Below, one piece after another: positions 958 to 57,274 of a DNA stretch of 64,000 nucleotides. The stretch is from Thermoplasmata archaeon (GTDB lineage Archaea > Thermoplasmatota > Thermoplasmata > Lutacidiplasmatales > UBA184), in the NCBI GenBank assembly GCA_035502455.1, contig DATJUI010000019.1, forward strand, positions 13,378 through 77,377, in the 5' to 3' direction. Numbering within the stretch: the stretch's first letter is position 1; each line of letters begins with the position of its first letter. A program made the position numbers and the translations under genes. The notes under the pieces were generated by a model. It was given only the letters and a program-made list of their open reading frames with translations, was not told the DNA's origin and did no database searches.

Positions 958-1270
958 CCTTCGTCTTCCCTCCGTTGGGTCGTGGAACTCGGGCACGGGT
1001 CTCGACAACCTCCCGTACGTGCACACGGTCTTCGTGGACCGGGGCACAGATGGACCCGTCGTGAGGGCGGCCACACTTCCTAGCGCACTCGACGTGCAAA
1101 GGGGTTGACGGCCGCCCGGGCCCGAGCTCACGTGGGCCCCCAGGCGTAGCAGCGGGATGAACCCGCTTTCAGGTCCACTTCCTCGTCCCGGAGGCGACCC
1201 CTCCGGGGCCCGTTCGTTCGTTCCCTCGCCGGGCCGGGGGGAGAAATAGCGGGACGGACTGTCGATTCCC

Positions 1271-13906: not shown

Positions 13907-13986
13907 CCACCCGCGCGCTCCTAATCAGGCGAGCGGTCGGACCGGGTCGAGCAATCCTTTAGCGGCGACCGGGTTAGCCCGCCGCG

Positions 13987-15313: not shown

Positions 15314-15907
15314 ATGATCCTCTCCGACACCAAGATCCGCGAGGCGCTGGCGAGCGGTCGGATCGTCATCCGCCCGTTCCGCCCGGACTGCCTCGGGACG
15401 AACTCCTACGACGTGCACCTCGGCCCCTACCTCGCGGTCTACGCCTCGGCGGCCCTCGACGCCCGGACCGCCAACCGCGTCCGCGAGTTCCGCATCCCGG
15501 CGGGCGGCTTCGTGCTCGTGCCCGGGCAGCTGTATCTCGGCGTCACCGAGGAGTACACGGAGACCCACGGCTACGTCCCGTTCCTCGAGGGTAAGTCGAG
15601 CGTCGGCCGGCTCGGGATCGACATCCACTCGACCGCGGGCAAGGGGGACGAGGGCTTCTGCAACTACTGGACCCTCGAGATGAGCGTGAAGCTCCCGGTG
15701 CGGATCTACGCCGGCATGCCCGTGGGGCAGCTCATCTACTTCGAGATCTCGGGCGCGGTGAAGCGCAGCTACTCCGCGAAGTCGTCGGCCAAGTACCGGA
15801 CCGTCTCGCCGCATCCGACGCCGTCGCGGATGTTCCTCAATTTCGCGCGGGCCCCGCGCGCGGCGGGGCGGCCTAGGCGTCGGACCGCGGCTCGCCGGGG
15901 CGCGTGA
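15314..15907 (+). CDS. dcd: dCTP deaminase
   Basis: MILSDTKIRE ... GKSSVGRLGIDIH ... LIYFE motifs of dCTP deaminase/dUTPase superfamily; ttaaatag TATA-like element about 30 nt upstream (15277-15284), consistent with a leaderless transcript. Confidence 0.85.
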   Translation: MILSDTKIREALASGRIVIRPFRPDCLGTNSYDVHLGPYLAVYASAALDARTANRVREFRIPAGGFVLVPGQLYLGVTEEYTETHGYVPFLEGKSSVGRLGIDIHSTAGKGDEGFCNYWTLEMSVKLPVRIYAGMPVGQLIYFEISGAVKRSYSAKSSAKYRTVSPHPTPSRMFLNFARAPRAAGRPRRRTAARRGA

Positions 15908-18809
15908 GATAGAACGCGGGGCGGCCGGGCCGGGCCCGGTCGCGTCGTCCGGTCGGGTCGTCCTCGGCGGCGGCCTCCTCGGGAACGACCCGGACCACGC
16001 GGAAGCCGAACCGGCGCGCGAGGTACCCCTCGGCGGTCGCGAGGACCGCGGCCTCGTCCACGGCGGGGCCCACCTCCCGGCTCTCGCCGCGGAGCAGCTT
16101 CGCGACGCGCTCGACGTACCGCGGCAGTTGCGCCCGATGCGCGAGCACGTCGGGGTGCCCCTGGGCGCGCTCCATCAGGGCTCGGATCGTCGGCGTCTCC
16201 CCGCGGTCGAGCGCGTCGCGGATCCAGCGCTCCACCTCCGCCTTCCACGGGGGGGCGACGAAGAAGACGACCGCATCCGGCGCCGGCTCGGACTTCTCGC
16301 GCGTCGGCCGAAGGACGGCGCGCAGATCGTCCTCCACCCGGTCGAGGAACGCCTCGCGGGCCTCGGCGACCGGGGACCGCGCGAACTCGTCGGCCTCGGG
16401 CATCCGCGCCTCGGCGACGAGCCCCTCGAACCAGCCGCCGTTGAGCTCCTCCGCGACGTGCGGCGTGAACGGGGCGATGAGCCGGACCGCGACGCGGCCG
16501 AGGGTATCCGTCGCCGATCCTCCTGCCGCGCCCCCGCGGGCGAGGTACCGGCGCAGGAGCGCGGGCAGCTCGGCGAACGCGATCTCGGCGGCGTCCCGGA
16601 ACTCCCACGCCGCGAACGCCGCGTGGTACCGGGCGACGAGATCGTGCAGGCGGGAGGTGAGCCAGGCATCGAGCTCGGGCGGGCCGGCCCCGTCGCCCGG
16701 GCACCCCGCGATCAGCCGCTCCATCTCGCGGAGCCGCTCCGCGGCGGCCTCGACCGCCTCCTCGCTCCACTCGAGGTCCTGCGCCGGCGCCGCCGCCACG
16801 ACCTGGGCGAGCCGGAGCGGATCCGGACCCCACTGACCGAGCGCATCGTCGATCGCGGGGATCCGCTGGCGGCGCCCGGTCGAGTGCCCGCCCTTCGCCG
16901 CGACGTCCTTCTTCGAGAGCTTGCCGCCCTGCTCGTTCGTGATCCACCCGTGCTCGAACACGCCCCGGGGCTGGAGCTCGTCCGGCAGGAGCTTCGCGTG
17001 GGTGTAGAGGAAGACCGGGAAGTGGACCCGCTTGTGCTCCTTCGCGGCGATGTTGACGTCGAGCGGGTACCAATAGAGGAACTCCTCCCGGACCGTCGCC
17101 GCGAGCCCGGGATCGACGGTCGGCTCGCCCGGGCCCCGGCCGAGAAAGACGGCGTCGAAGAACGGGTCCGTGAGCTGCTCGGTCCTAAGCCGCCCGTCGG
17201 CGACGAACCGGCGCACGACGAAGTACGCCATGTAGAACGTCGAGTCGGCGATGGGCTCGACGATCCACGCCGGGTCGAGCGGAAACGGCGTCCCGAGCCA
17301 CGGTCCCTTGCGCGCGCAGGGGCGGTCACCGAACCAGTCGATGATCCCGGGGAGGTCCCGGGCGTAGTCGGCCGGCACGGTCGTCACGCGGGCGGTCACG
17401 GCCCGCGTGCGGGCCTTCCAGGCCGGATCGCTGTAGCGGAGGAACCACTGGTCCGGGATGCGCCGGATGACGACCTCGTGGCCGTTGCGGCAGACGACCG
17501 GCTTCGAGAACTCCCGAAGCTCGAAGCTCCCGCCCCGTTCGAGAAGGCGCGCGGCGACCGTCACGCGGGCCTCGCGGACCGGGACGCCGTCGAGGCCGGC
17601 GACGCGCATCACCCCGCGGCTGAACTCGAGCCGATAGAGCCGTTCGGTCGCCTCGTCGATCGGCGCGGGGCCCGACCCCCCGGCTGCGCCGACCGCGCGG
17701 AGCGCCCGCTCGGCGGGGGTGCCTTCGCCCGCCTCGAGGGCCGCCTCGGAGGCGGCGAGCCCGCCCGTGCGGTCGAGATCGAGCAGGACCGGCGGCGTTC
17801 CGATCCGCGCCCGATCGTCCGGCGGCAGCTCGGCGACGGCCGCCGCGTCCGCCGGCGCGTGGGCCGGCACCGACATCACCACCCCCGTGCCGACGCGGGG
17901 ATCGACCAGCGCGCTCGGCAGCACGGGAACGACGACGTCCCGGAACGGGACCCGGACGCCGCGGCCGAGGAGGCCCGCGACGGGCACGGGATGGCCGAGG
18001 CGACCGCCGTGCTGCTCCACGAGCCGCTCGCCGCCGGCCCGGGCCACGAGGAACTCGTCGCTGCCCCGGTGCCAGACCACGAGCTCGCCGGCGGGCGGCA
18101 GCCAGAGGTTGGTGACGCCGAAGACGGTCTCGGGGCGCAGGGTCGCGGCGAGGAGCGTACGGCCGTCGTCCAGGCGGAACGGCACCGTGGTGTACGCCAC
18201 CACCTCCGCGTCCCCGCCCTGCGAGAGGTCCGTCTCCGCGGCGTCGACCGCGACGGGGCCGCAGACCGGACAGACCGACGCGAAGTAGGCGCCCTGGACG
18301 ACCTCCCCCTCGCGGGCGAGGGTCGTGATCTGCCAGCGCACGAACGCACGATAGTCGTCGTCGATCGTCGTGACGTACGAGTCGGGATCGACGAGCACGC
18401 CGAGGCGGCGAAGGACGCGCAGGTACTCGCGGCCGAGGAAGCGGGCCGCGTACTCGGGTTGCTCGAGACGCTTTCGCTCGGCCGGGGAGACCCCGTGGTC
18501 GTCGAGCTGGGCGATCGTGCCGGGGTCGCCCGACTCGACCTTGCGGGCCCAGGCGACCGCCGGAAGACCCGAGGCGTGGACCCCGAACGGGAAGAAGACC
18601 TGCACCCCGCGCATGCGGTGGTAGCGGTGGAGCGGGTCCGCGTACGCGTACCCCCGCAGATGCCCCACGTGGAGGAAGCCGCTCGTCCCCGGGTACGCGA
18701 CCAGCGCATAGAACTTCCCGCGCCCCGGGACGCGCCGGGCGCGGGCGAGGCCGGCCCGGTCCCAGGCCTCCTGCCAAAAGGTCGCCCGGTCCGGCTCCAT
18801 CGGCGCCAT
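15873..18809 (-). CDS. leuS: leucyl-tRNA synthetase, archaeal type
   Basis: 978 aa; class I HIGH (SGFLHVGHLRGY) and KMSKS-like (KLSKK) motifs; archaeal/eukaryal LeuRS domain order. Confidence 0.95.
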   Translation of the reverse strand: MAPMEPDRATFWQEAWDRAGLARARRVPGRGKFYALVAYPGTSGFLHVGHLRGYAYADPLHRYHRMRGVQVFFPFGVHASGLPAVAWARKVESGDPGTIAQLDDHGVSPAERKRLEQPEYAARFLGREYLRVLRRLGVLVDPDSYVTTIDDDYRAFVRWQITTLAREGEVVQGAYFASVCPVCGPVAVDAAETDLSQGGDAEVVAYTTVPFRLDDGRTLLAATLRPETVFGVTNLWLPPAGELVVWHRGSDEFLVARAGGERLVEQHGGRLGHPVPVAGLLGRGVRVPFRDVVVPVLPSALVDPRVGTGVVMSVPAHAPADAAAVAELPPDDRARIGTPPVLLDLDRTGGLAASEAALEAGEGTPAERALRAVGAAGGSGPAPIDEATERLYRLEFSRGVMRVAGLDGVPVREARVTVAARLLERGGSFELREFSKPVVCRNGHEVVIRRIPDQWFLRYSDPAWKARTRAVTARVTTVPADYARDLPGIIDWFGDRPCARKGPWLGTPFPLDPAWIVEPIADSTFYMAYFVVRRFVADGRLRTEQLTDPFFDAVFLGRGPGEPTVDPGLAATVREEFLYWYPLDVNIAAKEHKRVHFPVFLYTHAKLLPDELQPRGVFEHGWITNEQGGKLSKKDVAAKGGHSTGRRQRIPAIDDALGQWGPDPLRLAQVVAAAPAQDLEWSEEAVEAAAERLREMERLIAGCPGDGAGPPELDAWLTSRLHDLVARYHAAFAAWEFRDAAEIAFAELPALLRRYLARGGAAGGSATDTLGRVAVRLIAPFTPHVAEELNGGWFEGLVAEARMPEADEFARSPVAEAREAFLDRVEDDLRAVLRPTREKSEPAPDAVVFFVAPPWKAEVERWIRDALDRGETPTIRALMERAQGHPDVLAHRAQLPRYVERVAKLLRGESREVGPAVDEAAVLATAEGYLARRFGFRVVRVVPEEAAAEDDPTGRRDRARPGRPAFYLTRPGEPRSDA

Positions 18810-23685: not shown

Positions 23686-24648
23686 ATGGCGCGCATCGGG
23701 GTGACCGGCGCCACGGGGTTCATCGGCGGAGCCCTCGTGCCGGCGCTGGCCGCGGCGGGGTTCTCCCTCGTGCTGGTCGACGACCGATCGGGGCCGATGG
23801 TCGTCGAGCACCCCGCGCATCCGGCCGAGGCGATCCGGTTCGACTCCCCCCGGGCCCTCGAGCTCCTCGCGGGTTGCGATGCGGTGCTCCACCTCGCGGC
23901 CGTCTCGGGGGTCATGCCGTGCGCGCGGGACCCGGCGGGGACGCGGCGGGTCAACGTCGACGCGACCCGCGAGCTCCTCGAGCGGTGCGGGGCCCGCGGC
24001 GTCCCGGTCGCCTTCGCGAGCAGCTTCGCCGTCGTGGGGAAGCCCGAGCGGCTCCCCGTGAACGGGGCGACCCCGGCGCGGCCGACGCACGAGTACGCCC
24101 GCCAGAAGGCCGAGGGGGAGGCGCTGGTCGCGGCCGCGAGCCGGCGGTTCGGCACGGCAAACGCGATCCTGCGGATGAGCAACGTCTTCGGGAGCTACCG
24201 GGTCGGCGGTCGTGCGATCGCGAAGGGCAACGTGATCGCCGTCTTCCTCGCGCAGGCGGCGACCGGGGTGCTCTCCGTCAACGCGCCGGGCACCCAGCGG
24301 CGCGACTTCATCCACCTCGACGACGTCGTCGCCCACTGGGTCGCGGTCGCGGATCTCCTTTCGCGGTCCCCGCCCCCGGGAGCGCCGACGTTCGTCGTCG
24401 GGAGCGGAGAGGCCCACTCCGTCCTCGAGATCGCCGCCGAGGTCGCCCGGGACTGGACCGAGGCCCACCCGCACGACCCGGTCCCCGAGATCCGGATCGT
24501 GCCCAATCCGCGGGAGGGGGTCGAGCTCGTCGACCCGGAGTTCGCCGTCGATCGCCGGGAGACCGAGGAGCGGCTCGGGGTCCGATGCCGCCGCCACGTG
24601 GCGGAGACGATCCGGGGCGAGCTCGGGCTCCCCGCCGCCCCGGCGTAG
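23686..24648 (+). CDS. NAD-dependent epimerase/dehydratase (UDP-sugar 4-epimerase family)
   Basis: GVTGATGFIGGALV Rossmann motif; YxxxK region (YARQK). Confidence 0.85.
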   Translation: MARIGVTGATGFIGGALVPALAAAGFSLVLVDDRSGPMVVEHPAHPAEAIRFDSPRALELLAGCDAVLHLAAVSGVMPCARDPAGTRRVNVDATRELLERCGARGVPVAFASSFAVVGKPERLPVNGATPARPTHEYARQKAEGEALVAAASRRFGTANAILRMSNVFGSYRVGGRAIAKGNVIAVFLAQAATGVLSVNAPGTQRRDFIHLDDVVAHWVAVADLLSRSPPPGAPTFVVGSGEAHSVLEIAAEVARDWTEAHPHDPVPEIRIVPNPREGVELVDPEFAVDRRETEERLGVRCRRHVAETIRGELGLPAAPA

Positions 24649-45801: not shown

Positions 45802-46278
45802 CTACTTTCGGGCCCGGCCACCGGGACCGGGGCGCCTGTGCGTCCCTCGTCCACGAGGAGGTGGCCGTCTTGAGGATGTGGGCTCTCTTCCGAGACGTAT
45901 CCAGATTCCGTCGGGATCCTTGACCATCGCTGCCCATCCCCCAGTGGATTCCGGGGTGAACCGCGTGGCTCTACCTCCGTTTCGCAGGAGTTTCCGGTAC
46001 GCTCTATCGAGAGTGTAAGCCGGAGACGCACCGAGCGAGACGTCGATGTGATCCAGCTCGTCTCCCTTGCGGTACTTGGACGAGAACATGGAGCTTCGGG
46101 GATACCAGTTGAGTTCGAGGAGACGACGCGAGGTGGGATCCTGGAGGAGAGCGGTCACTCCGCCCCCCCAGCTACGACAATCATCCCTCCGGATCACGCG
46201 AAGTCCTAGTGCTCTCGTGTAGAACCTCACCGAACGCGGGAGATTCCCCACACGAATGCCGACACACTCGAGCCGCAT
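45802..46278 (-). CDS. VOC-family (glyoxalase/bleomycin-resistance fold) protein
   Basis: MRLECVGIRVGNLPRSVRFYTRALGL ... DPDGIWIRL beta-alpha-beta-beta-beta signature; C-terminal 30 aa probably read-through into the repeat. Confidence 0.6.
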   Translation of the reverse strand: MRLECVGIRVGNLPRSVRFYTRALGLRVIRRDDCRSWGGGVTALLQDPTSRRLLELNWYPRSSMFSSKYRKGDELDHIDVSLGASPAYTLDRAYRKLLRNGGRATRFTPESTGGWAAMVKDPDGIWIRLGREPTSSRRPPPRGRGTHRRPGPGGRARK

Positions 46279-46481
46279 CCTGAAGCATAGCGATCGAGGC
46301 TACTTAGGACCGAACCCAGTAGTTTCGACGCGCCCCCAGAGGTGCCGACCGAGACGCTAGATGGGTCCGCTGCGTACGGCCCCCAGCGAACTTTTCGCTG
46401 AGGGATTCGAACAAACGGCGATTCGACCACTAGCACGGGTGCTCTCCGAGCCGGCTCGATGAGCTATGTTCCCGACACGAC

Positions 46482-46508
46482 TATATTGATGTAGTGTATT
46501 GATGTGTA
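46482..46508 (+). promoter_or_regulatory. putative vapBC promoter/operator: two attgatgt direct repeats plus ctatatt TATA-like element
   Basis: attgatgt at 46485-46492 and 46498-46505, 5-15 nt upstream of vapB; RHH antitoxins typically autoregulate via repeats like this. Confidence 0.35.
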
Positions 46509-46511
46509 ACT

Positions 46512-46757
46512 GTGTCCGCAAAGACGGTGGCGTTGGACCCGGAGGCCTATGATATGCTGCGGCGCCAACGGCGAAGCGGCGAGACCTTTAGCGATGCGGT
46601 CAAGCGCCTTTCCGGCAAGCGCCGGTCGATCCTGGACTTTGCCGGGATATGGAAGGACATCCCCGACGAAGACCTCGAGAGGCTCCGCTCCTTCCTCGCA
46701 GAAGGACGGCGTCGGGACCGCGCGCGAATCGAGCGCCTGTTCCAGAAGGGGGGCTGA
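46512..46757 (+). CDS. vapB: type II antitoxin VapB (ribbon-helix-helix/COG4423-like)
   Basis: 81 aa; precedes the PIN gene with a 3-nt gap. Confidence 0.65.
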   Translation: MSAKTVALDPEAYDMLRRQRRSGETFSDAVKRLSGKRRSILDFAGIWKDIPDEDLERLRSFLAEGRRRDRARIERLFQKGG

Positions 46758-46760
46758 ACG

Positions 46761-47147
46761 GTGCGCTGCTTCGATTCAACTTTCCTTATCGATTACGTCC
46801 GGGGCGACGCGGACGCGGTCGGGAAAGTGAGAGAGCTCGTGGAGTTGGGTGAACGTCTCACGACCCCGTCCGCGGCTGCGGCCGAGGTCCTCGTCGGAGC
46901 TCACTTCCGGGGGCGGGGAGAACTCTCGCGAACTCTGGAATTCCTCGACCGCCTAGAGATCCTTCCCTTCGACATCGCCGAGGCAACCGAAGCCGGCAGG
47001 ATCGGTGCCGAGGCGCTTCGGCGGGGCGCCCCCATAGCGGGCAACGACCTGTTGGTCGCAGCGACCGCGCGACATCGCGGAGGGATACTCGTGAGCCGGG
47101 ACGGAGTCTTCTCGCAAGTGCCGGGCCTGGCGGTGGAAACGTACTGA
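46761..47147 (+). CDS. vapC: type II toxin VapC (PIN-domain ribonuclease)
   Basis: 128 aa; acidic PIN residues at conserved positions (CFDSTFLIDY ... AEV ... GNDLLVAATA ... SRDG). Confidence 0.8.
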   Translation: MRCFDSTFLIDYVRGDADAVGKVRELVELGERLTTPSAAAAEVLVGAHFRGRGELSRTLEFLDRLEILPFDIAEATEAGRIGAEALRRGAPIAGNDLLVAATARHRGGILVSRDGVFSQVPGLAVETY

Positions 47148-47182
47148 CGGATGGAGGGGATTCGTTACGGGGGCCGTAACGG

Positions 47183-47197
47183 ATCCCAGCACGGGCG
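47183..47197 (+). repeat. repeat copy 2: 15-nt exact match to the tRNA-Arg 3' end (atcccagcacgggcg) with about 45 nt of degenerate flank
   Basis: Identical to 45648-45662; follows vapC by 36 nt. Confidence 0.5.
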
Positions 47198-47486
47198 CCT
47201 TCCTCGGACCCGTGAGGAGCGGCGTGAGATTCGAGCACGATGAGACTCGGGCCCCCCCCGCGTCCAAGTGCGGGGTCTCGGCTGCTGGAGTCGAGGTGCC
47301 GTCGAGGTCGCCCGCTGACCCATGTGGGTGAGACGAACGTCTCGAAGTGCTCCCGATGAAGGTTCGCACCCGTGCAGCCTTGCCTCCTCCGCGGGACGTT
47401 ACCCCCGGTTTCAGATTCTGGGGAACCGCGGGTCAAGGAGGTCGAATGGCAGCCATTCAGCGAATCCGCTCGTCTTGCGGCGGGGG

Positions 47487-48320
47487 CTAGGTCTTCGGCT
47501 GGGCTCGCCCGACTGCGAAGGGACAAGCGAATCCCCAAATGATGATGACTACTAATGATCCCAGAATAAGAGGGAAGACGAATCTCGGTATCGAGTTCCC
47601 CGTAAAGATCCAAGCTGTCGCGGCTCCGCCGATAAAGCCTACGGTTCCTCCAATAAACCCTACGATCGCCATCCAATTTGGAAATACGCGGCTGTTCCAG
47701 AAGGCGACACTGAAGAGCGACACGCCCAAACCGAGGGCCGAGAAACCGAGGACCTCCCAACCATCCGTGATGTTGTACCAAAGCGCGGCCTCGTACGCAG
47801 CCGTCGCCGATGACGGAGCCGTGGTCGTCGATATGGCGTTGAGCGCGCTGTAGCTCGCGGCATTCGACACGGCCAACACGAATGCGCCGAAGAGGAACAC
47901 GAGCATGGAGGCCCATACCAGACCTCGACTTTGGGACTTGAGCGCCCCGCCGAGATACGTCGCGAAGGGCGTAACTCCCAAGGCGAAGACCAGGACCCAC
48001 AAATCGCTGAATGCGGTCGCGGCCTTGTTCGAATTGAACACGGCAAGCTGGTTCGACGGTGTCGAAGGTTCGGGTATGGTGACGAGTCCGGCGATGGTGA
48101 TTGCCGAGATCAGACCCGCCAAGATGGCGGCGATGAGAAAACCAGTCGGTCGGCCGGCGTCCGTGGGTATCGAGGTGTTTTCGGTTTCCGGAGGCTCGGG
48201 CAACATCGCGGCGACCGGGTTCTGAGGGATAAACGTTCCGAAGTCGCAAACCCTCTCTTTCGCCGAGCGGGGCGAGGAGTCGGGACCCGCCAGCGCCTGT
48301 CCGCCCAACGCCGGTCTCAA
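47487..48320 (-). CDS. hypothetical polytopic membrane protein (start possibly the internal Met at 48206)
   Basis: About 6 predicted TM helices; about 55-58 % GC, lower than the genome background. Confidence 0.55.
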   Translation of the reverse strand: MRPALGGQALAGPDSSPRSAKERVCDFGTFIPQNPVAAMLPEPPETENTSIPTDAGRPTGFLIAAILAGLISAITIAGLVTIPEPSTPSNQLAVFNSNKAATAFSDLWVLVFALGVTPFATYLGGALKSQSRGLVWASMLVFLFGAFVLAVSNAASYSALNAISTTTAPSSATAAYEAALWYNITDGWEVLGFSALGLGVSLFSVAFWNSRVFPNWMAIVGFIGGTVGFIGGAATAWIFTGNSIPRFVFPLILGSLVVIIIWGFACPFAVGRAQPKT

Positions 48321-48672
48321 GATCTCGGGCGGCCGGCCCGCTGCGCGGCGTCCGTGTCCGAGGCGCTTGTGCTCGGTCCTGAGCCCCTCGACTCGACCCG
48401 GGATTGAGGGAGGTGTCGATCACAAATCCACAAGTGAGGTCATGGACCGGTTCCACGACCTCACGGCGGGTACGTGCTCCCGCGTCCCGAGCGGGCGCGG
48501 TGGAGTCGAATACGTAGCTGCTCGAATCCCAGTAGGGGCGCCTACCCTATCTCTGCCCGCGAGCGTGGACACGAAGGTAGAGAGACCTACGACACCTCGC
48601 GCCCCCACGGACTCGCACGGGGAGTCGCGCGTCGCCGGGAGTTGGGATGTCGCACCCCGGCTCCAAGACCGG

Positions 48673-49290
48673 TCAGGCGGGCTTCTTGGCGATGACAAAA
48701 TCCATCGCATGGCGGTGGGGAACGCCACTCGAGTTGCAATCGAACTCTACCTCCCCCGAGTCCAGGATCTGCCAGTCCCCGTAGTACCCGAGCAGCTCGC
48801 CGGGGCGATAGGGGTGCTCCGCGGGATCCATTTCGGGCGGAGGATCGAGATAGGGCTTGGGAACAAAGGCGTTCACCGCATGAATGCCTCCCCGAACGGT
48901 GTGGGCTTGGAAGTGAGCAAAACGGGCCGGTCGGGCGCCCCGCGGGAGATTGTTGAGGACCCCGGAACTGAAGACCACATCGAATCGACGGCTCAGTTGG
49001 TACGATCGGATGTCGCCGATGCGAAAGCGCACCGCTAGACCGAGACGAGCGGCCCTTCGCTCCCCCTTGACCAGCCCGACGCGAGAGACGTCGACGCCAA
49101 GAACTCGAAACCCGTGACGGGCGAAGTGAATCGAATCTCGCCCCTCACCCGAGCCGAGATCGAGCAGCGTCGGCGACTTCGCCGGAAGGGTCCGGGCGAC
49201 TCGAACGACCTCGCGTGCCAGTCCGGTCGGCCTCGTCCCCCAGTACCAGCCCGGCCGTGAGTACCGCTGGTCGTAACTCGGTTCCCGCAT
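48673..49290 (-). CDS. class I SAM-dependent methyltransferase (TehB/thiopurine-MTase-like)
   Basis: LLDLGSGEGRDSIHFARHGFRVLGVDVS motif I plus post-I acidic residue; WYWG N-terminal motif. Confidence 0.75.
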   Translation of the reverse strand: MREPSYDQRYSRPGWYWGTRPTGLAREVVRVARTLPAKSPTLLDLGSGEGRDSIHFARHGFRVLGVDVSRVGLVKGERRAARLGLAVRFRIGDIRSYQLSRRFDVVFSSGVLNNLPRGARPARFAHFQAHTVRGGIHAVNAFVPKPYLDPPPEMDPAEHPYRPGELLGYYGDWQILDSGEVEFDCNSSGVPHRHAMDFVIAKKPA

Positions 49291-49403
49291 CGGTTACGTT
49301 CGCCCCCGACGGGCTATGTGTCGCGAGACTTGGGATTAGGCTATCTTGGGACTCACGACTCGTCGTCGCGGCCCGGGGGAGCGGCTCAGGACGGGGATTC
49401 TAG

Positions 49404-49555
49404 CCATCGGCGGCCGAATCGCAGCACGGGCGAGTTTCTCCCTCCACCCGAGAGGTTCGGGATCGGGTCGCTGCGCCTGTCCCGCTCGGAAGGGATCGAT
49501 GCCTCCCGCACAGTCCCACCCGGACCTCCGCATAGAGCCGTCGGGGAAAGCCCGA
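49404..49555 (+). repeat. repeat copy 3: tRNA-Arg T-loop/acceptor 3' fragment plus about 130 nt of flank, about 75 % identical to copy 1
   Basis: cgaatcGcagcacgggcgagtt (one mismatch to tRNA) then co-linear similarity to 45663-45795. Confidence 0.55.
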
Positions 49556-49664
49556 ACCGGCCTCCCCGGGCATGGGGAGTCGGATCGACGATCCGTGCCA
49601 CGCGGTGACGGCCGCCGTCCCTCGCCGCATTGGCCTCCACCCGGACGGGGGTCCGCACGCGCGT

Positions 49665-50723
49665 TCAATGCTTCGCGTAGTACTCCGCCACCGCGCGGAA
49701 CGACTCATTGGGCTCCCAGGGCATGTCGGGGTAGGTCGCCCCATGACCCCGTTCCAGGTAGCGAGCGAGGCTCGGGGAGGCCGTGTCCACGTCGAACCGT
49801 GGCTCCTCGTCGTAGGGCGTAATCTGCGATTGAAAGGTGCTAACGAAGCCGCCCAAGACGCCGGCTCGCTCGATCCGGTCCAATTGGGCGACCAGCTTCT
49901 GGGCCTGGGACTTTTCGTCTCGGACGAGGGGTGTCTTCAGCCGGGGGCGCACGAATCGGCCGATGAGGGGGAGTTGATGCAGGAGCTGAGAGCGGACATC
50001 GATCGGCGAGGGTTTGAGACCCGCGGAGTCCAGGAACCCATCGGCGCCCGGACCGTCGTCCGCCGTGGAGAATCCGAACTCCGTGATGACGACCGGCTTG
50101 CCCGTGGCGATGGCCGGACGGAGCATCTCGGTCCAGCGGTCCGCGATGCGGGCGGTAAGGTAGTGGTCCACCCCGACGAAGTCGAAAGCAGACCAGTCGA
50201 CTCCCTCCCAGACGAGCGACGCGTAGGTGAGTCGTCCGCGATACTCGCGTTGGACGGCCTTCACGAGTCGGGTGAGTAGCTCGTTCAGCGGGCGATTGTG
50301 CCGCCCACTCTTCACGGTGGGAAAGAACTGCGGGCTCCGGACCCGGGCTCTCATGGTCCGGCCGGGAATGACTCCCTCGTTGAACAGCGTGGCTTCCATC
50401 GCTACGCCGAGCACCACCCGGTCCGGAGCCTCCTTGCGAAGCGGCTCGAGCGCCCTGGCCGCCCGGATCAGGTAGCTCGCTGAGGTCTGGGGGCTACGGT
50501 CCCAGCACTGGGGAAAGATCCAGGTCTCGAGCCCTTCCGCGAGGGCCGCCCTGCCCGCGATCACCAGTCGTGCGGGATCCTTGCCGACGATTCGCACCGC
50601 GGTACAGTGCAGGTCGCGCCGGATGATCCCGAGCTCGTGGCGGACGTTCTCCGCCCGGAAATCCGGTCGCCAGTTCATCCCGTAGACGACGCCGGCGTCG
50701 TAGCAGACACCCTTCAGCTTCAC
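49665..50723 (-). CDS. TIM-barrel glycoside hydrolase-like protein (GH-A clan-like, ITEFG nucleophile motif)
   Basis: 352 aa; VVITEFGFS resembles the clan GH-A catalytic nucleophile strand; family not assignable by eye. Confidence 0.55.
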   Translation of the reverse strand: MKLKGVCYDAGVVYGMNWRPDFRAENVRHELGIIRRDLHCTAVRIVGKDPARLVIAGRAALAEGLETWIFPQCWDRSPQTSASYLIRAARALEPLRKEAPDRVVLGVAMEATLFNEGVIPGRTMRARVRSPQFFPTVKSGRHNRPLNELLTRLVKAVQREYRGRLTYASLVWEGVDWSAFDFVGVDHYLTARIADRWTEMLRPAIATGKPVVITEFGFSTADDGPGADGFLDSAGLKPSPIDVRSQLLHQLPLIGRFVRPRLKTPLVRDEKSQAQKLVAQLDRIERAGVLGGFVSTFQSQITPYDEEPRFDVDTASPSLARYLERGHGATYPDMPWEPNESFRAVAEYYAKH

Positions 50724-50918
50724 GCGCGCGGCGCTCCGTCGACCCGGCGCTCCCGTAAATCATCGTCGCGGAGTTGGACGCGGGCGCCGGTGGAGACGAT
50801 CGGACTCGAACTGAGTCGTCCGGCCGAAACGCGCCGATCGAGAGTCTCGGTCGGACCCCCGTACGGGTGCGTGGAAACTACGGAACCCGAGCTCGGCGGG
50901 ACGTTCGACCCACTGGGG

Positions 50919-51653
50919 CTACGTGGGGTCCTTGAGCCCGAGCAGCAACCCCCGGCCCGGAGTTAGGCCTCGCCGCAGGAAGCGGGCGGTCAGTCCGGCC
51001 TCCTCCATGAGTCGCACCAGCCGGCTTCGGGGTACGAGGAGGCCGATGTCCACCTCCTCGAGATGCTCCACGCGGCGCCCCGTTCTTCCGATGAGGTAGT
51101 GATAGTGGACCGCCGAGCGTCCCCCCCGCCGCGAAGAGAACGCCATGCGGGCGACCGTGACCGAGGGGCTCGTCCGAGTCAGCAGGTGAACGTACCCCGA
51201 GCGGAAGTCCGAGGGATCGATCCACGGCTCCACGATGACGACGCCGCCCGGCTGCAGGTGACGGGCGAAGTTCGAGAACGTCGCGGCGAGCTCCCGTTCG
51301 GTCTTGAGGTGACCGATCGCACTGTAGAGGCAGCTTACCACGTCAAAAGTCTCGTCGAGACGAAAGCTCCGCATGTCCCCGGGAATCAGCCGGACCCGGG
51401 GCAGACGACGCCGCGCCACCCGGAGCATCTCGCGACTCACGTCAACGCCCGTGACCGTGTAGTCACGCCGGAGGAAGCTCAGATGTCGTCCAGTACCGCA
51501 CGCCACATCCAGCCACGCCCGTCCTCGAGAACGGCCGAACTGGCGAGCGAGCGATTCGAGAACGCGGGCTTCCGAACGGTAGTCCTTCCCTCCCACCAGA
51601 TCGTCGTAGTAGAGCGCCAGTCGATGGAACATGAGGGGCTTGACTCGGGCCAT
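50919..51653 (-). CDS. TylM1/DesVI-family dTDP-aminosugar N,N-dimethyltransferase-like methyltransferase
   Basis: Co-linear similarity to TylM1 along the whole length: LALYYDDL, WLDVACGTGRHLSFL (vs LLDVACGTGMHLRHL), GDMRSFRLDETFDVVSCLYSAIGHL (vs GDMRDFSLGRRFSAVTCMFSSIGHL), GGVVIVEPWIDPSDFRSGYV (vs DGVVVVEPWWFPENFTPGYV), HYHYL (vs HYLV). Confidence 0.8.
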   Translation of the reverse strand: MARVKPLMFHRLALYYDDLVGGKDYRSEARVLESLARQFGRSRGRAWLDVACGTGRHLSFLRRDYTVTGVDVSREMLRVARRRLPRVRLIPGDMRSFRLDETFDVVSCLYSAIGHLKTERELAATFSNFARHLQPGGVVIVEPWIDPSDFRSGYVHLLTRTSPSVTVARMAFSSRRGGRSAVHYHYLIGRTGRRVEHLEEVDIGLLVPRSRLVRLMEEAGLTARFLRRGLTPGRGLLLGLKDPT

Positions 51654-52123
51654 ATCGAGCTCCCTCGACCGCTTCGGGCCCCTACGTGAACCCCTGGGTC
51701 ATGAATAAGAACGGGGTGCCACCGACGACCGGCTGGCTTCCCAACCTGGGAGTGCCGCCGTCCCGCCGGCTCTACCCGCATGCCGGATCGGATCCGGCCG
51801 AGATCGTGGGCCGGATGCCGGCTCTCGCCGTGCGCCCTCCTCTCGAGAGCGCGCTCGAGAGGCGGAGGGAGCTCGATCGTCGACCGGGGGGCGGGGACGC
51901 TCGACCTCGGACCCGCCGCACGCGTCTCTCATTCACCCATCGATCCCTCGTCAGGACCTCACGGGCGCCGGCCGCGATCGAACTCCGCTTCCGGAAGCTT
52001 CCCCCAATTTCTCGTCGATGCGGCGATGCTACGTTGCAAGTACGCGGTGGGCCACGGGGACGAGCCCTACGCGCCCGGTCCTGCCGAGGTCGAGGGGGTC
52101 CGGTCACGGGGGGGCGCTGCCCA

Positions 52124-52615
52124 TCAGGAGTTCAGGGCGGTGTCCCTGCGACGGGGGGTCGGAGCGTCGTCACCCCTTCCCGCTTGCGAAGTCCGTTCGT
52201 CCAAGCGCTTGAGGAGGTCCCGGAGCTGGAGGAGGTCTTGGGTCTCCCAGCCATCGAAAACCCCCTGGTGGTGGGCCAGCCGCTTGTGGACATGACTGTG
52301 GACGTGCAAGCCAACGCGAGTCGTCTGCACACGTACAAGACGGCGGTCCTCCCGGTCGCGGTGGCGACGTACGAGGTGGTCGCGCTCCATCTGGTCAATG
52401 ATCCCGGTCACGTGAGCCGGGCTGACGCCCAGAAACTGGGCGAGTTCACTCTGGGTGATCCCGCCGGGGGTCTGAGCGGCGTGGAGGGTCAGGTGGTGCA
52501 ACATCGGGAGCTGGGAGTGCAAGTGCGGACCGAACCGGGGGACCGCCCGGCGGAACACCCGACGGAGCAATCCCAGCGTCTCCTCGATCAGCTCGTCCCG
52601 ATCCGACTCGATCAT
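52124..52615 (-). CDS. MarR-family transcriptional regulator
   Basis: 163 aa winged HTH (ITQSELAQFLGVSPAHVTGIIDQMERDHLVRRHRDREDRRLVRVQTT). Confidence 0.8.
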   Translation of the reverse strand: MIESDRDELIEETLGLLRRVFRRAVPRFGPHLHSQLPMLHHLTLHAAQTPGGITQSELAQFLGVSPAHVTGIIDQMERDHLVRRHRDREDRRLVRVQTTRVGLHVHSHVHKRLAHHQGVFDGWETQDLLQLRDLLKRLDERTSQAGRGDDAPTPRRRDTALNS

Positions 52616-52660
52616 CCCGTCGTTCCCTCATCGCCCCGAAGGGCATAGAACCTTCGCCTC

Positions 52661-52705
52661 CAAATCATTCAATCAAAAATGTTTTAATACTGAATGAATA
52701 TAGAG
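52661..52705. promoter_or_regulatory. AT-rich divergent promoter/operator between marR and the ABC exporter; inverted repeat cattca...tgaatg and TATA-like aatatag
   Basis: Sequence tcattcaatcaaaaatgttttaatactgaatgaatatag; the ABC ATPase ATG is about 10 nt downstream. Confidence 0.4.
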
Positions 52706-52710
52706 GACGC

Positions 52711-53802
52711 ATGGCCGCAGCCGCCCGCCCTGCGAGCACCGTCCCCCGTGTCACCTACGGACCGTCCCGTTCCGACGCGATGATCGAGGTCCAGGATCTC
52801 GTCAAGGTCTACGGCGGCGGTCGCGGCCCGACCGCCGAGCCCGAGGTCCGAGCGGTCGACGGCATCAGCTTCTCGGTCTCCGAGGGAGAGTTCTTCGGGT
52901 TCCTCGGCCCGAACGGTTCGGGCAAGACCACGACGATGAAGATTCTCACGACCCTGCTCGGCCGGACGAGCGGACGGGTTCGGGTCGCGGGCTTCGACAT
53001 CGACCACGATGGGGCCCGGATGCGGAAGCAGATCGGCTACACCGGGCAGTCGATCGGGGTGGACGGGGATCTCACCGGCCGGGAGAACCTCATGCTGATG
53101 GGCCGACTGTACCACTTGCCCGGTCCTCTGGTCCGGGACCGAGTGGAAGACCTGCTCCGGCTCTTGCAGCTAACCGAAGCGGCCGATCGTCCCGCGTTCA
53201 CGTACTCGGGAGGGATGCGACGCCGGCTCGACCTCGGCTCGGCGCTCGTCCACCGGCCGAAGCTCCTGTTCCTTGATGAACCGACCACCGGATTGGACCC
53301 TCAGACCCGCAACGCCCTGTGGGAGTACCTCCGAGAGCTCCACGTCCGGGACGGGGTCACGATCTTCCTCACGACGCAGTACATGGAGGAGGCCGACCGG
53401 CTCTGCGAGCGCGTCGCGATCATCGACCACGGCCGTATCGTCGCGCAGGGAACGCCGGCGCAGCTCAAAGCCGAAATCGGGGCGGACAGCGTCACGATTC
53501 GCCTCCCGCTCGACGAGCGGCTCGAGGCGCGGAGACGGGAGGCGCTCGAGCTCGTCCGAACGGTCCCGGAAGTGGTCGGCGCTGCGCCCTTTGAGTTCGG
53601 GGTGACCGTCCAGGCCCGAAACGGAGGGGCGGCTCTCGTCGAGATCCTGCGGCGCCTCGAGTCGGGTCATGTCCCGGTGAAGGAAGTGGCGGTCTCGCCC
53701 CCGACCCTCGACCAGGTCTTCCTCCAGCACACGGGTCGCGAGATGCGCGCGGAGGAAGTGAGGCCGATGACCCGCATGGCCCGCCGCGGGATGGGACGGT
53801 AG
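52711..53802 (+). CDS. ABC transporter ATP-binding protein, DrrA-like (ABC-2 exporter ATPase)
   Basis: Walker A GPNGSGKTT, signature YSGGMRRRL, Walker B LLFLDEPTTGLD; DrrA-type C-terminal extension. Confidence 0.85.
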   Translation: MAAAARPASTVPRVTYGPSRSDAMIEVQDLVKVYGGGRGPTAEPEVRAVDGISFSVSEGEFFGFLGPNGSGKTTTMKILTTLLGRTSGRVRVAGFDIDHDGARMRKQIGYTGQSIGVDGDLTGRENLMLMGRLYHLPGPLVRDRVEDLLRLLQLTEAADRPAFTYSGGMRRRLDLGSALVHRPKLLFLDEPTTGLDPQTRNALWEYLRELHVRDGVTIFLTTQYMEEADRLCERVAIIDHGRIVAQGTPAQLKAEIGADSVTIRLPLDERLEARRREALELVRTVPEVVGAAPFEFGVTVQARNGGAALVEILRRLESGHVPVKEVAVSPPTLDQVFLQHTGREMRAEEVRPMTRMARRGMGR

Positions 53803-53803
53803 C

Positions 53804-54670
53804 ATGGCGACAGGGACCGGCCACCGCTACGAGCTCCCCGAGCTCTCGGTACCCTCGCCCGGATTCGGCTCCTTCTTCTCGGATATCGCGTGGGTCTGCT
53901 ACCGGAGTTTGAGGAAGCTCTCCCGCAACCCACTTCTCCTGATGTTCACGTTGATCATGCCGCTCATCTGGCTCGGGATGTTCAGCCAGACCTTCGGAAC
54001 GGTGTTCTCGAGGGCGGAGAGCGCCCCCGGTACCGCTCCCCTGCCGTACGACTACATCGCGGTTCTCTTGCCCGGGATTGCCATCATGACCGCGATCCAG
54101 GCGGCGTCACAGTCCGGGTTTGTGATGGTCTCGGACATCGAAACGGGCTTCATGGACAAGTTCTTCGTCGCTCCGATTCGCCGCAGTTCGGTCCTGGTCG
54201 GAAAGCTCCTCGGCGACGCCATCCGGATGGCGGGACAGGCGATCATCGTGCTCGGGATCGCCTACGTCTTCACGCTCGCCTTCGGCTGGAAGATCCCATT
54301 CGCGACGGGCATCCTGGGGGGCCTCCTGATCGTCCTGCTCGCCGCGCTCTTCGGGGTCGCGTTCTCGGGCCTGTCGAACTCGGTCGCGCTGTTCACGAAG
54401 AACACCGAGACGACGATGATGGTGGCGTTCACGCTCACCTTCCCGCTGCTCTTCCTCTCGACGGCGATGGTACCGCTCAGTCTCCTTCCGGGGTGGGTCC
54501 AGACGTTCTCGATGTTCAACCCGGTGAGCTACGTCGCCACCGCCTCGCGCGCGATGATCCTCACGGGCTTCAACTGGCCCGAGGTCGGCCAAGCGTTCGC
54601 AGCGATCGCGATTGTCGGAGTGCTGCTCAACGCGCTCGCGGTGTACGCGTTCCGGCGACAGGGCCGCTAG
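53804..54670 (+). CDS. ABC-2 family transporter permease (DrrB-like)
   Basis: 288 aa, 6 TM helices; starts 2 nt after the ATPase stop. Confidence 0.8.
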   Translation: MATGTGHRYELPELSVPSPGFGSFFSDIAWVCYRSLRKLSRNPLLLMFTLIMPLIWLGMFSQTFGTVFSRAESAPGTAPLPYDYIAVLLPGIAIMTAIQAASQSGFVMVSDIETGFMDKFFVAPIRRSSVLVGKLLGDAIRMAGQAIIVLGIAYVFTLAFGWKIPFATGILGGLLIVLLAALFGVAFSGLSNSVALFTKNTETTMMVAFTLTFPLLFLSTAMVPLSLLPGWVQTFSMFNPVSYVATASRAMILTGFNWPEVGQAFAAIAIVGVLLNALAVYAFRRQGR

Positions 54671-54677
54671 GGTGGAG

Positions 54678-55091
54678 ATGTCGACCGATCCGGAGCTCAC
54701 GCCCGGGGGAGGTCCCATCCAGCGCGGGACCGAGGCACCGTCCGACGAGCTCCCGGTGGGCTCGCGGAACGCGCCGAAGGCGCGCCGAGCCGCTCGCGAC
54801 CCGAAGCGACCGGGCGAACGATGCCGTGCGGCCCCGGGTCACTGGATCCCGGTCGTTGATCGGGCCCAGTGCGAGGGCAAAGCCGAATGCGTCGACGTTT
54901 GTCCGTACGCGGTCTTCCAGATCGGAACCCTCACGGACGAAGAGTATCGATCGCTGAGCTACCTGGGACGGGCCCGGGCGCGCCACCACCAGTTCCAGAC
55001 CTCTCGCACGCCCCGTGCCGCGGAGTGTCGGGCATGCGGGCTCTGCGTGGTCGCGTGCCCCGAGGATGCGCTGAAGCTGATCCGAAGCTGA
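54678..55091 (+). CDS. 4Fe-4S ferredoxin-domain protein with disordered N-terminus
   Basis: Two cluster-binding cysteine motifs, CEGKAECVDVCP and CRACGLCVVACP. Confidence 0.6.
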   Translation: MSTDPELTPGGGPIQRGTEAPSDELPVGSRNAPKARRAARDPKRPGERCRAAPGHWIPVVDRAQCEGKAECVDVCPYAVFQIGTLTDEEYRSLSYLGRARARHHQFQTSRTPRAAECRACGLCVVACPEDALKLIRS

Positions 55092-55408
55092 CGCGGGCGG
55101 GGTCCGACGCGAAGGGAACCCTCCTCCGGTTCGGCCAGCTCTACGGGCCGGGGACCTACTCTGAGTCAAGGCAACCGGCCCCCCCGCGGATCCACGTAGA
55201 CTCGGCGGCGCGTCGAACGTATGCGGCGCTGGGATCACCCCCGGGAGTCGTCACACTCGTGGACGAGTGAGCCACGACCGAGCGGGACCTCCAGCCGTTG
55301 AGACGGGGGTCGGCCCTTCGGTCATCGCCCGTCGGTTCCTTTCCCTGCTGGACCGGCGAGAAGGGCGGCGGAGTTCGGTCGCGCCCCGAAACCGGTCCGT
55401 CGGCGCCG

Positions 55409-55786
55409 TTACCTCGCCTTTCCGGCCCGATGTCTGCGGTCGGCGTCCCGCACGAGCTTCTTGATCAGCGGAATCGGAATCGGCTCGCCGAGCGGGAAGC
55501 GAAGCGCGGAGTTCGCGTTCTGGTATCTGGCAATCTCCTCCGCGTGAGGTGCTAGGTCCTTGGGTCGAAGGAAGAGCCCGATGCTCGCCCGCTGCAGCCC
55601 AAAGTAGCAGAGCCGTCGTTCGATCCCGGCTTCTCCCTGGTAGCTGTAGAACGGCATTCCGTAGCTGATGCTCTCGTCGGCCCCGGGGGCGGCCTCTCGG
55701 ATGGCCGCTCGGAGCTGCTTCAGCACGCTCCGCGTTCCGACCGGGGCCGATCGGATGTATTGATCGACGCTCTTCGCGGGGGGCAC
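55409..55786 (-). CDS. DUF1801 (YdhG-like) domain protein
   Basis: 125 aa; DQYIRSAPVGTRSVLKQLRAAIREAAPGADESISYGMPFY matches the DUF1801 N-terminal pattern. Confidence 0.6.
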   Translation of the reverse strand: MPPAKSVDQYIRSAPVGTRSVLKQLRAAIREAAPGADESISYGMPFYSYQGEAGIERRLCYFGLQRASIGLFLRPKDLAPHAEEIARYQNANSALRFPLGEPIPIPLIKKLVRDADRRHRAGKAR

Positions 55787-56206
55787 CGGGTTCCGAGGCC
55801 CGTTAGCGCTTATGAGAGCTTTCGCGCCCGGCCGGGCGCCCGCTCGGGCCGGTCAACGGCCGGAGCCACTCTCGGTCCCACCCCGGGCCGACCGGACACG
55901 ACGGCCCGCTGAGGCCCACCGCGGCGTGCCTCGACTCCCGCGATCCCGGAGCCCCGGGCCGGCGGCCGCGCGGGGGGCGTTTACCCCTTCGGAGGCCCCA
56001 GTTCCGGGTCGTGGAACCGCGGGGCGAGACGGGGCTGCCGGCGCGTAGGAGAGCCCGGCCGCGATGTTCCGGCTCGACGGCCCGGGCGCACCGGGCTTAT
56101 GGGGCGCGAGCGGATGTGGACGGAGGAGCCATGGCCGCCTTCTCCCGCCCGCCCCGCCTGCTTCGCACGGCGCGGCGGGTGGCCGAAGGGCTCCGGGGGG
56201 GCCGCG

Positions 56207-57274
56207 ATGGCGGTCGTTAAGCCGGTCGTCCTGCGGAGCCTGAACCGCGCCCTGCGCAACCTCGCCGGCGAGAAGAGCCCGGTCATCGCGGGGCACAAGC
56301 TGCTCTACCGGTGCAACCTCGAATGCAAGATGTGCCCGTTCTGGCGGCGGGAGGACGAGCAGCTGCTCGGGCTCGCGGACGAGATCCGGATGATGGAGGC
56401 CCTCGCGCGGGCGGGCGTCTCGTTCCTGGGCTTCGAGGGCGGCGAACCGCTCCTGCGGCGCGATGTCGGCGAGATCGTGGCCGAGGCCCACACCCGGTTC
56501 CATACCTCCCTCGTCACGAACGGTTGGCTCCTCGAGCACCGGTTGCCCGAGATCGCCCCGCACCTCGACCTGCTGTTCGTGTCGCTCGACGGCATCGGGG
56601 CGACGCACGACCGGCTGCGGGGGATCCCTCGGTCGTTCGACCGGGCGGTCAGCGGCATGAAGGCGTCGCGATCCGAGGTGCCGACGGTCATCAGCCACAC
56701 CGTGACCCGCGAGAACGCCGACCAGGCGGAGCAGGTCGTCGAGCTCGCCGAGCGCCTCGACGTGGGGATCACGGTCCAGATCGCGTACGACTACCGGACC
56801 GCCGACGCGATGTCGCCGAAGCCCGAGCAGCTCCGCCCGGTCATCGAACGGCTCCGCGACCTGCGCAAGAGCGGGGCGCCCCTCCTCGAATCGGTCGACT
56901 ACTTCGACGCGATCCTCGGGTCCTGGTACGGCGAGAAGCCGTGGCGGTGCAAGCCGTGGCTGACGGTGAACGTCGACCCGCAGGGACGTCTCGTCCTCCC
57001 CTGCTACGTCCTCCAGGAGTACGAGGGTTCCCTACCGGTCTGGGACGTCGACGTGCGCGCCCTCTGGAACTCGTTCGACTGGGCCCCGTACGAGTCGTGC
57101 AACAAGTGCGCGCTCGCCTGCTACCTCGAGCCGTCGCTGTTCCGGTGGACCGACTTCGCGAGCCTCAAGGACCGGGTGGTGGACGCCTCCGTCCACTATC
57201 TGCGGCGCACCACCCGCACATCGACCCGCATGCCCTCGAGCTCGCTCGTCCAGATCGAGGCCGCCGCCGACTGA
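56207..57274 (+). CDS. radical SAM enzyme with SPASM/twitch-like C-terminal Cys cluster
   Basis: Internal ATG MAVVKP...; CNLECKMC (CxxxCxxC), GFEGGEPLL, C-terminal CKPW...PCY...CNKCALACY; track ORF has a spurious upstream extension. Confidence 0.75.
   Translation: MAVVKPVVLRSLNRALRNLAGEKSPVIAGHKLLYRCNLECKMCPFWRREDEQLLGLADEIRMMEALARAGVSFLGFEGGEPLLRRDVGEIVAEAHTRFHTSLVTNGWLLEHRLPEIAPHLDLLFVSLDGIGATHDRLRGIPRSFDRAVSGMKASRSEVPTVISHTVTRENADQAEQVVELAERLDVGITVQIAYDYRTADAMSPKPEQLRPVIERLRDLRKSGAPLLESVDYFDAILGSWYGEKPWRCKPWLTVNVDPQGRLVLPCYVLQEYEGSLPVWDVDVRALWNSFDWAPYESCNKCALACYLEPSLFRWTDFASLKDRVVDASVHYLRRTTRTSTRMPSSSLVQIEAAAD

Follow-up and report, generated by a model that had tools for sequence, protein, structure and literature searches.

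Does a methyltransferase gene in the chromosome of a Thermoplasmata archaeon, whose product resembles the Streptomyces enzymes TylM1 and DesVI, serve an amino-sugar pathway, and was it imported from the bacteria that run such pathways? The gene lies in a 64-kb stretch of contig DATJUI010000019.1 (the window, 64,000 nucleotides in all) and encodes a class I S-adenosylmethionine (SAM)-dependent methyltransferase, here called MTase. A first-pass annotation had read it as an amino-sugar N,N-dimethyltransferase acquired from high-GC bacteria and working with its neighbours; if this idea were true, dimethylamino sugars would be an archaeal product, or archaea would harbour parts of antibiotic pathways. 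Here, our comparisons of sequence, predicted structure and gene context revealed that the TylM1/DesVI fold extends throughout the protein, and that MTase adds one more protein to a known fold family and was not borrowed from an antibiotic-sugar pathway.

Architecture of the methyltransferase

The open reading frame (ORF) is present exactly as claimed, with an ATG start and 244 codons. In phmmer searches of the PDB, TylM1 (3pfg) was recovered with E=1.9e-46 over query residues 21–241, together with DesVI (3bxo; E=2.5e-44), CalS10 (4e-33) and KedS8 (5bsz; 7e-29), whereas generic methyltransferases aligned only to residues ~9–142, the Rossmann part, with E values of 5e-16 or higher. Identity to TylM1 residues 29–248 in BLASTP was 42.7% across 220 aa. 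Gaps are almost absent from the family alignment, TylM1 and MTase being separated by a few core substitutions and two indels of one to two residues, besides the pocket exchanges described below. The AlphaFold2 model, computed with 47 homologues as input (predicted local distance difference test score 89.8), displayed a Rossmann core and a four-stranded cap sheet, with cap strands assigned by DSSP to residues 155–161, 165–176, 179–190 and 196–205. Foldseek aligned this model to TylM1 and DesVI with a template modelling (TM) score of 0.91 and a root-mean-square deviation (rmsd) of 1.2–1.4 Å over ~233 columns, and to CalS10 and KedS8 with TM scores of 0.85–0.89, while all other structures scored at most 0.81 with an rmsd of at least 2.9 Å.

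The likeness to TylM1 and DesVI is thus confirmed over the full length and lies far above chance, which bears out both the co-linearity of the 244-aa protein with TylM1 and its assignment to the TylM1/DesVI type. With homology along the whole length including the cap, the shared fold of seven-stranded Rossmann sheet and antiparallel cap, the SAM motifs and the active-site histidine, the protein belongs to this structural family. Pfam returned generic methyltransferase domains only, and no NCBIfam model reached its cut-off. The first-pass annotation had also described a contrary outcome, in which the best homologues would be generic archaeal methyltransferases and the likeness to TylM1 would be limited to the Rossmann core; the best homologues are indeed archaeal methyltransferases, but the similarity to TylM1 continues beyond the core.

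Relatives and phylogeny

Of the 836 homologues that a search of 5.8 billion proteins identified at E<1e-10, the best 120 are 61–99% identical to MTase, and all those among them with an organism name are Thermoplasmata archaea; more than 100 Thermoplasmata clusters, likewise at 61–99% identity, make up the nearest relatives. When 1.84 billion cluster representatives were searched exhaustively, 414 clusters matched at E<=1e-30, among which TylM1, scoring 162 bits against MTase, would place about 65th. Nothing could be learned from the names of the nearest clusters at the 50% identity level. In a scan of GTDB species, identities were 47–69% for Thermoplasmata, 39–44% for other archaea and 32–44% for bacteria, including Chloroflexota, Latescibacterota, Bipolaricaulota, Actinomycetota metagenome-assembled genomes (MAGs), Streptomyces and others; actinomycete homologues are 36–42% identical to MTase, as against up to 99% for those of Thermoplasmata.

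Neighbour joining with bootstrapping (115 sequences, 233 columns) resolved a Thermoplasmata clade with 96–97% support and a separate clade, supported at 89%, that unites all cultured-actinomycete homologues with TylM1; the nodes between the two received 28% support or less. Since DesVI, CalS10 and KedS8 score 170–295 bits to TylM1 and the actinomycete loci, and 104–155 bits to MTase, every characterised enzyme falls in the actinomycete clade. MTase is accordingly not placed among the biochemically characterised dTDP-amino-sugar (dTDP, deoxythymidine diphosphate) N,N-dimethyltransferases (TylM1, DesVI; EC 2.1.1.234/235). An arrangement in which CalS10 and KedS8 bracket the archaeal clade was rejected, as both fall with the actinomycetes. 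The expectation that a homology search and a phylogeny would reveal actinobacterial nearest homologues was not borne out, the nearest being Thermoplasmata. Two individual homologues deserve mention: P0122, of 517 aa, apparently carries a tandem pair of TylM1-like domains (E=3.5e-70 over two matched stretches), and the clade member P0095 is labelled a dTDP-amino-sugar N,N-dimethyltransferase by the Joint Genome Institute (JGI) pipeline.

Gene context of the family

For the context comparison, all ORFs within ±8 kb of a homologue were clustered at 86 loci, and hidden Markov models were built from the recurrent actinomycete neighbours, the identities of which were confirmed by Pfam. The resulting families comprised EryCIII-like glycosyltransferases, DegT/DnrJ/EryC1 aminotransferases, RmlA, RmlC-like epimerases, nucleoside diphosphate (NDP)-hexose 2,3-dehydratases and short-chain dehydrogenase/reductase (SDR) ketoreductases. 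Such deoxysugar genes lie within this distance at 18 of the 21 loci from cultured actinomycetes, at none of the 15 from Thermoplasmata and nearby archaea, and at one or two of the 49 from other bacteria. They also occur at one distant homologue (32% identity) in a Euryarchaeota MAG, L079, where RmlA and a DegT-type aminotransferase (15556–18460) lie 5–7 kb from the homologue (10001–10645).

The Pfam tables of seven Thermoplasmata contexts contain no NDP-sugar genes, and the window itself holds no RmlA, RmlB, DegT or glycosyltransferase gene. Its sole sugar-like gene encodes a generic SDR protein 27 kb from MTase, scoring 51 bits against an RmlB cut-off of 365 bits, and its sole aminotransferase is of the aspartate type. 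At five loci from Anaerolineae and Chloroflexia (L019, L021, L022, L025 and L030), the homologue adjoins genes of the lactate-utilisation type (CCG-domain and LUD/4Fe-4S proteins), again with no sugar genes.

Residues of the substrate pocket

Across the family, the LDVACGTG motif, Asp71, Asp93-Met94 and His115 are conserved or invariant. MTase and TylM1 share the SAM motifs, Lys23-Asp24-Tyr25, Glu28, Arg95, His115, His132, Glu142-Pro143-Trp144, Arg169 and Arg234, the two last corresponding to Arg177 and Arg241 of TylM1. The TylM1 counterpart of His115, His123, is an active-site residue beside the substrate amine.

Positions conserved in at least 80% of the sugar-context enzymes were then compared with the archaeal clade. 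The sugar-context enzymes carry a signature, derived in this analysis and not from the literature, that consists of [E/D]PWWFP, a Ser-His pair in the cap, Tyr14 and Ser120, and MTase does not have it. Relative to TylM1, Tyr14 is replaced by Phe9, Ser120 by Ala112, Trp153-Phe154 by Ile145-Asp146 and Ser179-His180 by Ala171-Phe172, the last pair being specific to the clade and located in the cap together with the invariant Arg169. Further exchanges are His98 to Ile90 (Val/Ile in the clade), Arg109 to Glu101, Val192 to Tyr184 and Phe244 to Leu237. An aromatic dyad after [E/D]PW is present at 18 of 19 sugar-context loci, as against 3 of the 64 loci outside such contexts (Fisher p=3e-14, uncorrected for phylogeny), and two of these three belong to the actinomycete clade; TylM1, DesVI and CalS10 carry the dyad as well. 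By comparison, 107 of 116 Thermoplasmata sequences read EPW[ILV][DE]P, and 108 of 116 sequences of the archaeal clade have Ala/His where TylM1 has Ser120/His123. The position of Tyr14, which was placed with the help of TylM1's nearest relative (L048), where the conserved Tyr sits 17 residues before Lys31, is occupied by Tyr in 17 of 18 sugar-context enzymes and by Phe in 38 of 41 archaeal-clade members. In TylM1, the Y14F exchange reportedly cut catalytic efficiency ~30-fold, and S120A is said to have had a modest effect; both exchanges are native to the archaeal clade. The TylM1 mutants Y14F, Y14paF and S120A are represented in the PDB (6m81–6m83).

This comparative signature is suggestive of a substrate pocket that differs from that of the nucleotide-sugar enzymes. 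Together with the contexts (NDP-sugar genes near 18 of 21 actinomycete homologues, near none of the 15 archaeal ones and nowhere in the window), the replaced signature residues speak against the amino-sugar function that had been proposed for MTase.

Chromosomal setting and origin

The window comes from the ordinary chromosome of a Thermoplasmata archaeon with very high GC content, and it encodes SMC, a class I aminoacyl-tRNA synthetase, a Hel308-type helicase, isocitrate dehydrogenase, FtsZ, Spt5, L11, GatD/GatE and aconitase. In this strain, MTase lies among unrelated accessory genes in a variable segment of ~10 kb with low third-position GC content (GC3), its own GC3 being 0.79. The segment contains a gene of the vicinal oxygen chelate (VOC) family, a VapBC toxin-antitoxin pair, DUF4386, a TehB-like methyltransferase, the KijX-like gene treated below, MTase, MarR, DrrA/B-type exporter genes, a ferredoxin and DUF1801, and has the appearance of a variable accessory region flanked by GatD and the aconitase block.

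In relatives at 63–66% identity (L005–L008 and L095), the gene stands directly after a block of permease, ATP-binding cassette (ABC) ATPase, aconitase, 262-aa methyltransferase and glyoxalase genes, and has the same GC3 as the genes around it. The window contains this block too, separated from MTase by a 5-kb gene set of PTO1314-family radical SAM protein, DUF1801, ferredoxin, DrrA-type ABC exporter and MarR. Since the position beside the aconitase block is kept in relatives in which GC3 matches that of the neighbours, MTase is old in the Thermoplasmata lineage. Its GC3 lies below that of the host, which argues against a high-GC bacterial donor; if the lower value in this strain points anywhere, it is to exchange with a less GC-rich relative rather than with a high-GC bacterium. 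Horizontal transfer from high-GC bacteria, as the first-pass annotation had supposed, thus finds no support, in view of the Thermoplasmata affiliation of the nearest relatives, a well-supported clade apart from the actinomycetes and composition.

Elsewhere in the window, an IS110-family transposase gene lies at the very edge, and a large protein with a pro-kumamolisin activation domain, that is, a sedolisin-type protease, is probably the surface protease that had been suggested as a carrier of the dimethylated amino sugar (Table 1).

Neighbouring genes

The gene downstream of MTase had been described as a glycoside hydrolase-like TIM barrel, which is right and can be named more precisely as a homologue of the KijX/AcvX family. 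Pfam and NCBIfam gave no match for this 352-aa protein, while phmmer aligned its residues 1–349 to AcvX (PDB 7y4h) with E=3.8e-57 and 36% identity, Foldseek gave TM scores of 0.80–0.85, and generic clan GH-A glycosidases followed far behind. Two glutamates, Glu110 and Glu215, are invariant in 50 homologues and follow the strands at 103–106 and 211–216, after β4 and at the end of β7; full-length homology, fold and glutamates agree in placing the protein in this family, and clan GH-A topology suggests a catalytic role for the two residues. Its ~700 homologues come from Thermoplasmata, Bathyarchaeia, Nitrososphaeria and Chloroflexota. Some carry the NCBI name "abortive infection protein", apparently a mislabelling. 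AcvX and KijX take deoxysugars off lobophorins and kijanimicin and thereby confer resistance, and their homologues have been reported to be widespread, archaea included (PMC12710036). As a partner of MTase, the TIM barrel was rejected: L091 has it between an ABC gene and aconitase, and L092, a Bathyarchaeia contig, has it alone, both without MTase.

On the other side of MTase, the predicted MarR gene divergent from a DrrA-type ABC exporter was recovered by Pfam and TIGR01188. Synteny with L005–L008 and L095 identifies these genes (52124–54670) as an insertion between MTase and the glyoxalase/aconitase block; as they are also absent from the other contexts, they too were rejected as partners. 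The functional block of MTase with the TIM barrel and the MarR/ABC genes that had been envisaged thus finds no support, none of them recurring beside the gene in other genomes.

VOC genes were found near MTase at 8 of 16 archaeal loci and at none of 70 bacterial loci, and the VOC protein of the window is 59% identical to that encoded directly upstream of MTase in L005/L008. A conserved VOC/glyoxalase–MTase module was nevertheless rejected, since the VOC proteins beside MTase are of more than one subfamily and the pairing was not borne out reciprocally: of four VOC158 homologues, only one lay next to an MTase, and it came from the lineage that shares the aconitase synteny.

Table 1. Positions of the methyltransferase, its motifs and other features within the 64-kb window
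Feature	Position	Strand	Basis or remark
MTase: TylM1/DesVI-fold class I SAM-dependent methyltransferase, 244 aa, Thermoplasmata orphan clade	50919–51653	-	ORF; phmmer; AlphaFold2/Foldseek; clade at 96–97% bootstrap
Phe9, at TylM1 Tyr14 position	51627–51629	-	Residue comparison
SAM-binding motif I, L48-D-V-A-C-G-T-G55	51489–51512	-	Invariant or near-invariant across the family including TylM1; SAM role presumed from class I methyltransferases
His115, equivalent to TylM1 His123	51309–51311	-	Alignment, TylM1 numbering checked; invariant in archaeal clade
E142-P-W-I-D-P147, clade signature in place of [E/D]PWWFP of sugar-cluster enzymes	51213–51230	-	
Four-stranded antiparallel β cap, residues ~155–205, inserted in Rossmann fold	51039–51191	-	DSSP of model
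Compositionally atypical segment holding MTase	45802–56000	.	GC3 0.64–0.90, against 0.92–0.97 in host core genes
VOC/glyoxalase-family gene	45802–46278	-	291 homologues; missing from gene table of public contig (L001)
VapBC toxin-antitoxin pair	46512–47147		
TehB-like methyltransferase	48673–49290		
KijX/AcvX-family glycosidase homologue (TIM barrel), 352 aa	49665–50723	-	195 bp downstream of MTase
MarR	52124–52615	-	Pfam; divergent from exporter
DrrA-type ATPase	52711–53802	+	TIGR01188 drrA, 337 bits against cut-off 312
ABC-2 permease	53804–54670	+	Pfam
Radical SAM protein, PTO1314 family	56207–57274	+	TIGR03961, 512 bits against cut-off 306; C-terminal DUF3463; distantly like hopanoid HpnH
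Permease/ABC/aconitase/262-aa methyltransferase/glyoxalase block	57.3–64 kb		
Generic SDR	23686–24648		
IS110-family transposase	2–1168	-	Window edge; DEDD_Tnp_IS110 + Transposase_20
Sedolisin-type protease	11549–13924	-	Pro-kumamolisin activation domain

Proposed function and alternatives

On balance, we lean towards reading MTase as a stand-alone SAM-dependent N-methyltransferase of TylM1/DesVI architecture, from a Thermoplasmata-wide clade, with a probable substrate other than a dTDP-3-amino-deoxyhexose. By homology, the enzyme would bind SAM through motif I (Leu48–Gly55), the acidic Asp71 and the Asp93-Met94 pair, and the methyl group would pass directly from SAM to an amine positioned close to His115, probably twice in succession, as in TylM1 and DesVI. 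By analogy with these enzymes, the most likely activity of MTase is the SAM-dependent N-methylation of an amine. Given the remodelled pocket (EPWIDP, Ala-Phe, Phe9 and Ala112), the enzyme most likely acts on a small molecule that bears an amine but is not one of the classical dTDP-3-amino-deoxyhexoses. The clade, which is specific to the Thermoplasmata, has long been inherited vertically there, in no sugar or glycan gene cluster.

The alternative that comes nearest to the original proposal is a true nucleotide-amino-sugar N,N-dimethyltransferase, with thymidylyltransferase, 4,6-dehydratase and aminotransferase encoded elsewhere in the genome and a dimethylamino sugar placed on an archaeal surface glycan; we regard it as unlikely, though the most probable of the alternatives. 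All four solved close homologues use dTDP-amino sugars and are the sole full-length PDB matches, His115, Arg169 and Arg234 are conserved, and the JGI name of P0095 agrees with this function. Several observations weigh against the non-sugar substrate that we prefer. Lys23, Asp24, Tyr25, Glu28, Arg95, Arg169 and Arg234 are invariant and common to TylM1, and some of these residues may bind the nucleotide diphosphate. The score between TylM1 and KedS8, 170 bits, is barely above that between MTase and TylM1, and the identity and TM score to TylM1 are at a level where substrate class is often kept. The distant archaeal homologue L079 is encoded near RmlA and DegT, sugar-nucleotide genes could lie elsewhere in the genome outside the 64-kb window, and our residue test provides a suggestive comparative signature that is not tied to known dTDP contacts in TylM1. 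Yet the clade has no sugar context at any of its 15 loci, nor is there any in the window, MTase falls outside the clade of the characterised enzymes, and the Trp-Phe, Ser-His, Tyr14 and Ser120 signature is replaced; moreover, we know of no dimethylamino sugar reported in archaeal glycans.

We give much less credence to a strain-specific island for resistance to, or detoxification of, the glycosylated, amino-sugar-bearing antibiotics of soil actinomycetes. In such a scheme, the KijX-like deglycosidase would strip the sugars, MTase would N-methylate the exposed amino sugar or another amine, and the DrrA-type pump, under MarR control, would carry the product out of the cell. Over its full length, the TIM barrel is homologous to enzymes that inactivate lobophorin and kijanimicin (PMC12710036), the ATPase scores above the DrrA subfamily cut-off with MarR divergent from the exporter, TehB-like methyltransferase and VOC genes are close by, and the whole segment has atypical GC3. 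However, the association is confined to this strain, MTase, the KijX-like gene and the exporters being separate elsewhere; exporters of the DrrA-type ABC-2 kind, like MarR regulators, abound; and the TylM1-type enzymes characterised so far use dTDP-sugars and not finished antibiotics. Least credible of all, and to our minds very nearly dismissible, is the idea that the gene arrived recently from an actinobacterial antibiotic cluster as the remnant of a macrolide-sugar pathway, an alternative that the first-pass annotation itself had offered. Sequence similarity to TylM1 and DesVI and the atypical composition of the segment would accord with it, but it is contradicted by the tree, in which MTase is not nested in the actinomycete clade, by the far lower identities of the actinomycete homologues, by a GC3 below and not above that of the host, and by the chromosomal position kept in distant Thermoplasmata.

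More broadly, there is an outside chance that the Thermoplasmata clade, whose pocket is remodelled, methylates a class of substrates new for the TylM1 fold. TylM1-like methyltransferases form a large family, most members of which, the archaeal clade included, stand alone with no tie to sugar clusters. The name dTDP-amino-sugar N,N-dimethyltransferase, which one pipeline already applies, is unjustified for such genes when neither the Trp-Phe/Ser-His signature nor a sugar context is present. The archaeal clade is conserved across soil and peat Thermoplasmata, and its substrate is a testable, modest question.

Comparison with known systems

Among characterised or solved enzymes outside the TylM1/DesVI family, the peptide-amine N,N-dimethyltransferases CypM (7wzg) and daptide methyltransferase (NF041820), and the archaeal methyltransferase PH1305 (1wzn), which has no assigned function, resemble MTase in Rossmann core, N-terminal helix and, probably, amine N-methylation chemistry. 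However, only the core aligns (residues ~9–170; E 1e-12 to 1e-18), with TM scores of at most 0.81 and an rmsd of at least 3 Å, and the daptide model NF041820 scores 66 bits on MTase against a cut-off of 175. CalS10 (6uk5) and KedS8, amino-sugar mono-N-methyltransferases of enediyne pathways encoded in actinomycete biosynthetic gene clusters, share the fold and align over the full length, but score 118 and 104 bits to MTase as against 213 and 170 bits to TylM1. DesVI of Streptomyces venezuelae, the dTDP-3-amino-3,4,6-trideoxyglucose N,N-dimethyltransferase, has the same two-domain architecture and superposes as closely as TylM1 at 38% identity; unlike MTase, it has EPWWFP and Ser-His, as TylM1 does, and belongs to the actinomycete clade. 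The closest comparison is TylM1 of Streptomyces fradiae (3pfg/3pfh/4oqd), the dTDP-3-amino-3,6-dideoxyglucose N,N-dimethyltransferase, with which MTase is co-linear and shares the SAM motifs, the active-site His123, Glu-Pro-Trp, Arg177 and Arg241; TylM1, however, is part of a deoxysugar/macrolide cluster, whereas MTase stands without such a context in a separate and well-supported clade of its own.

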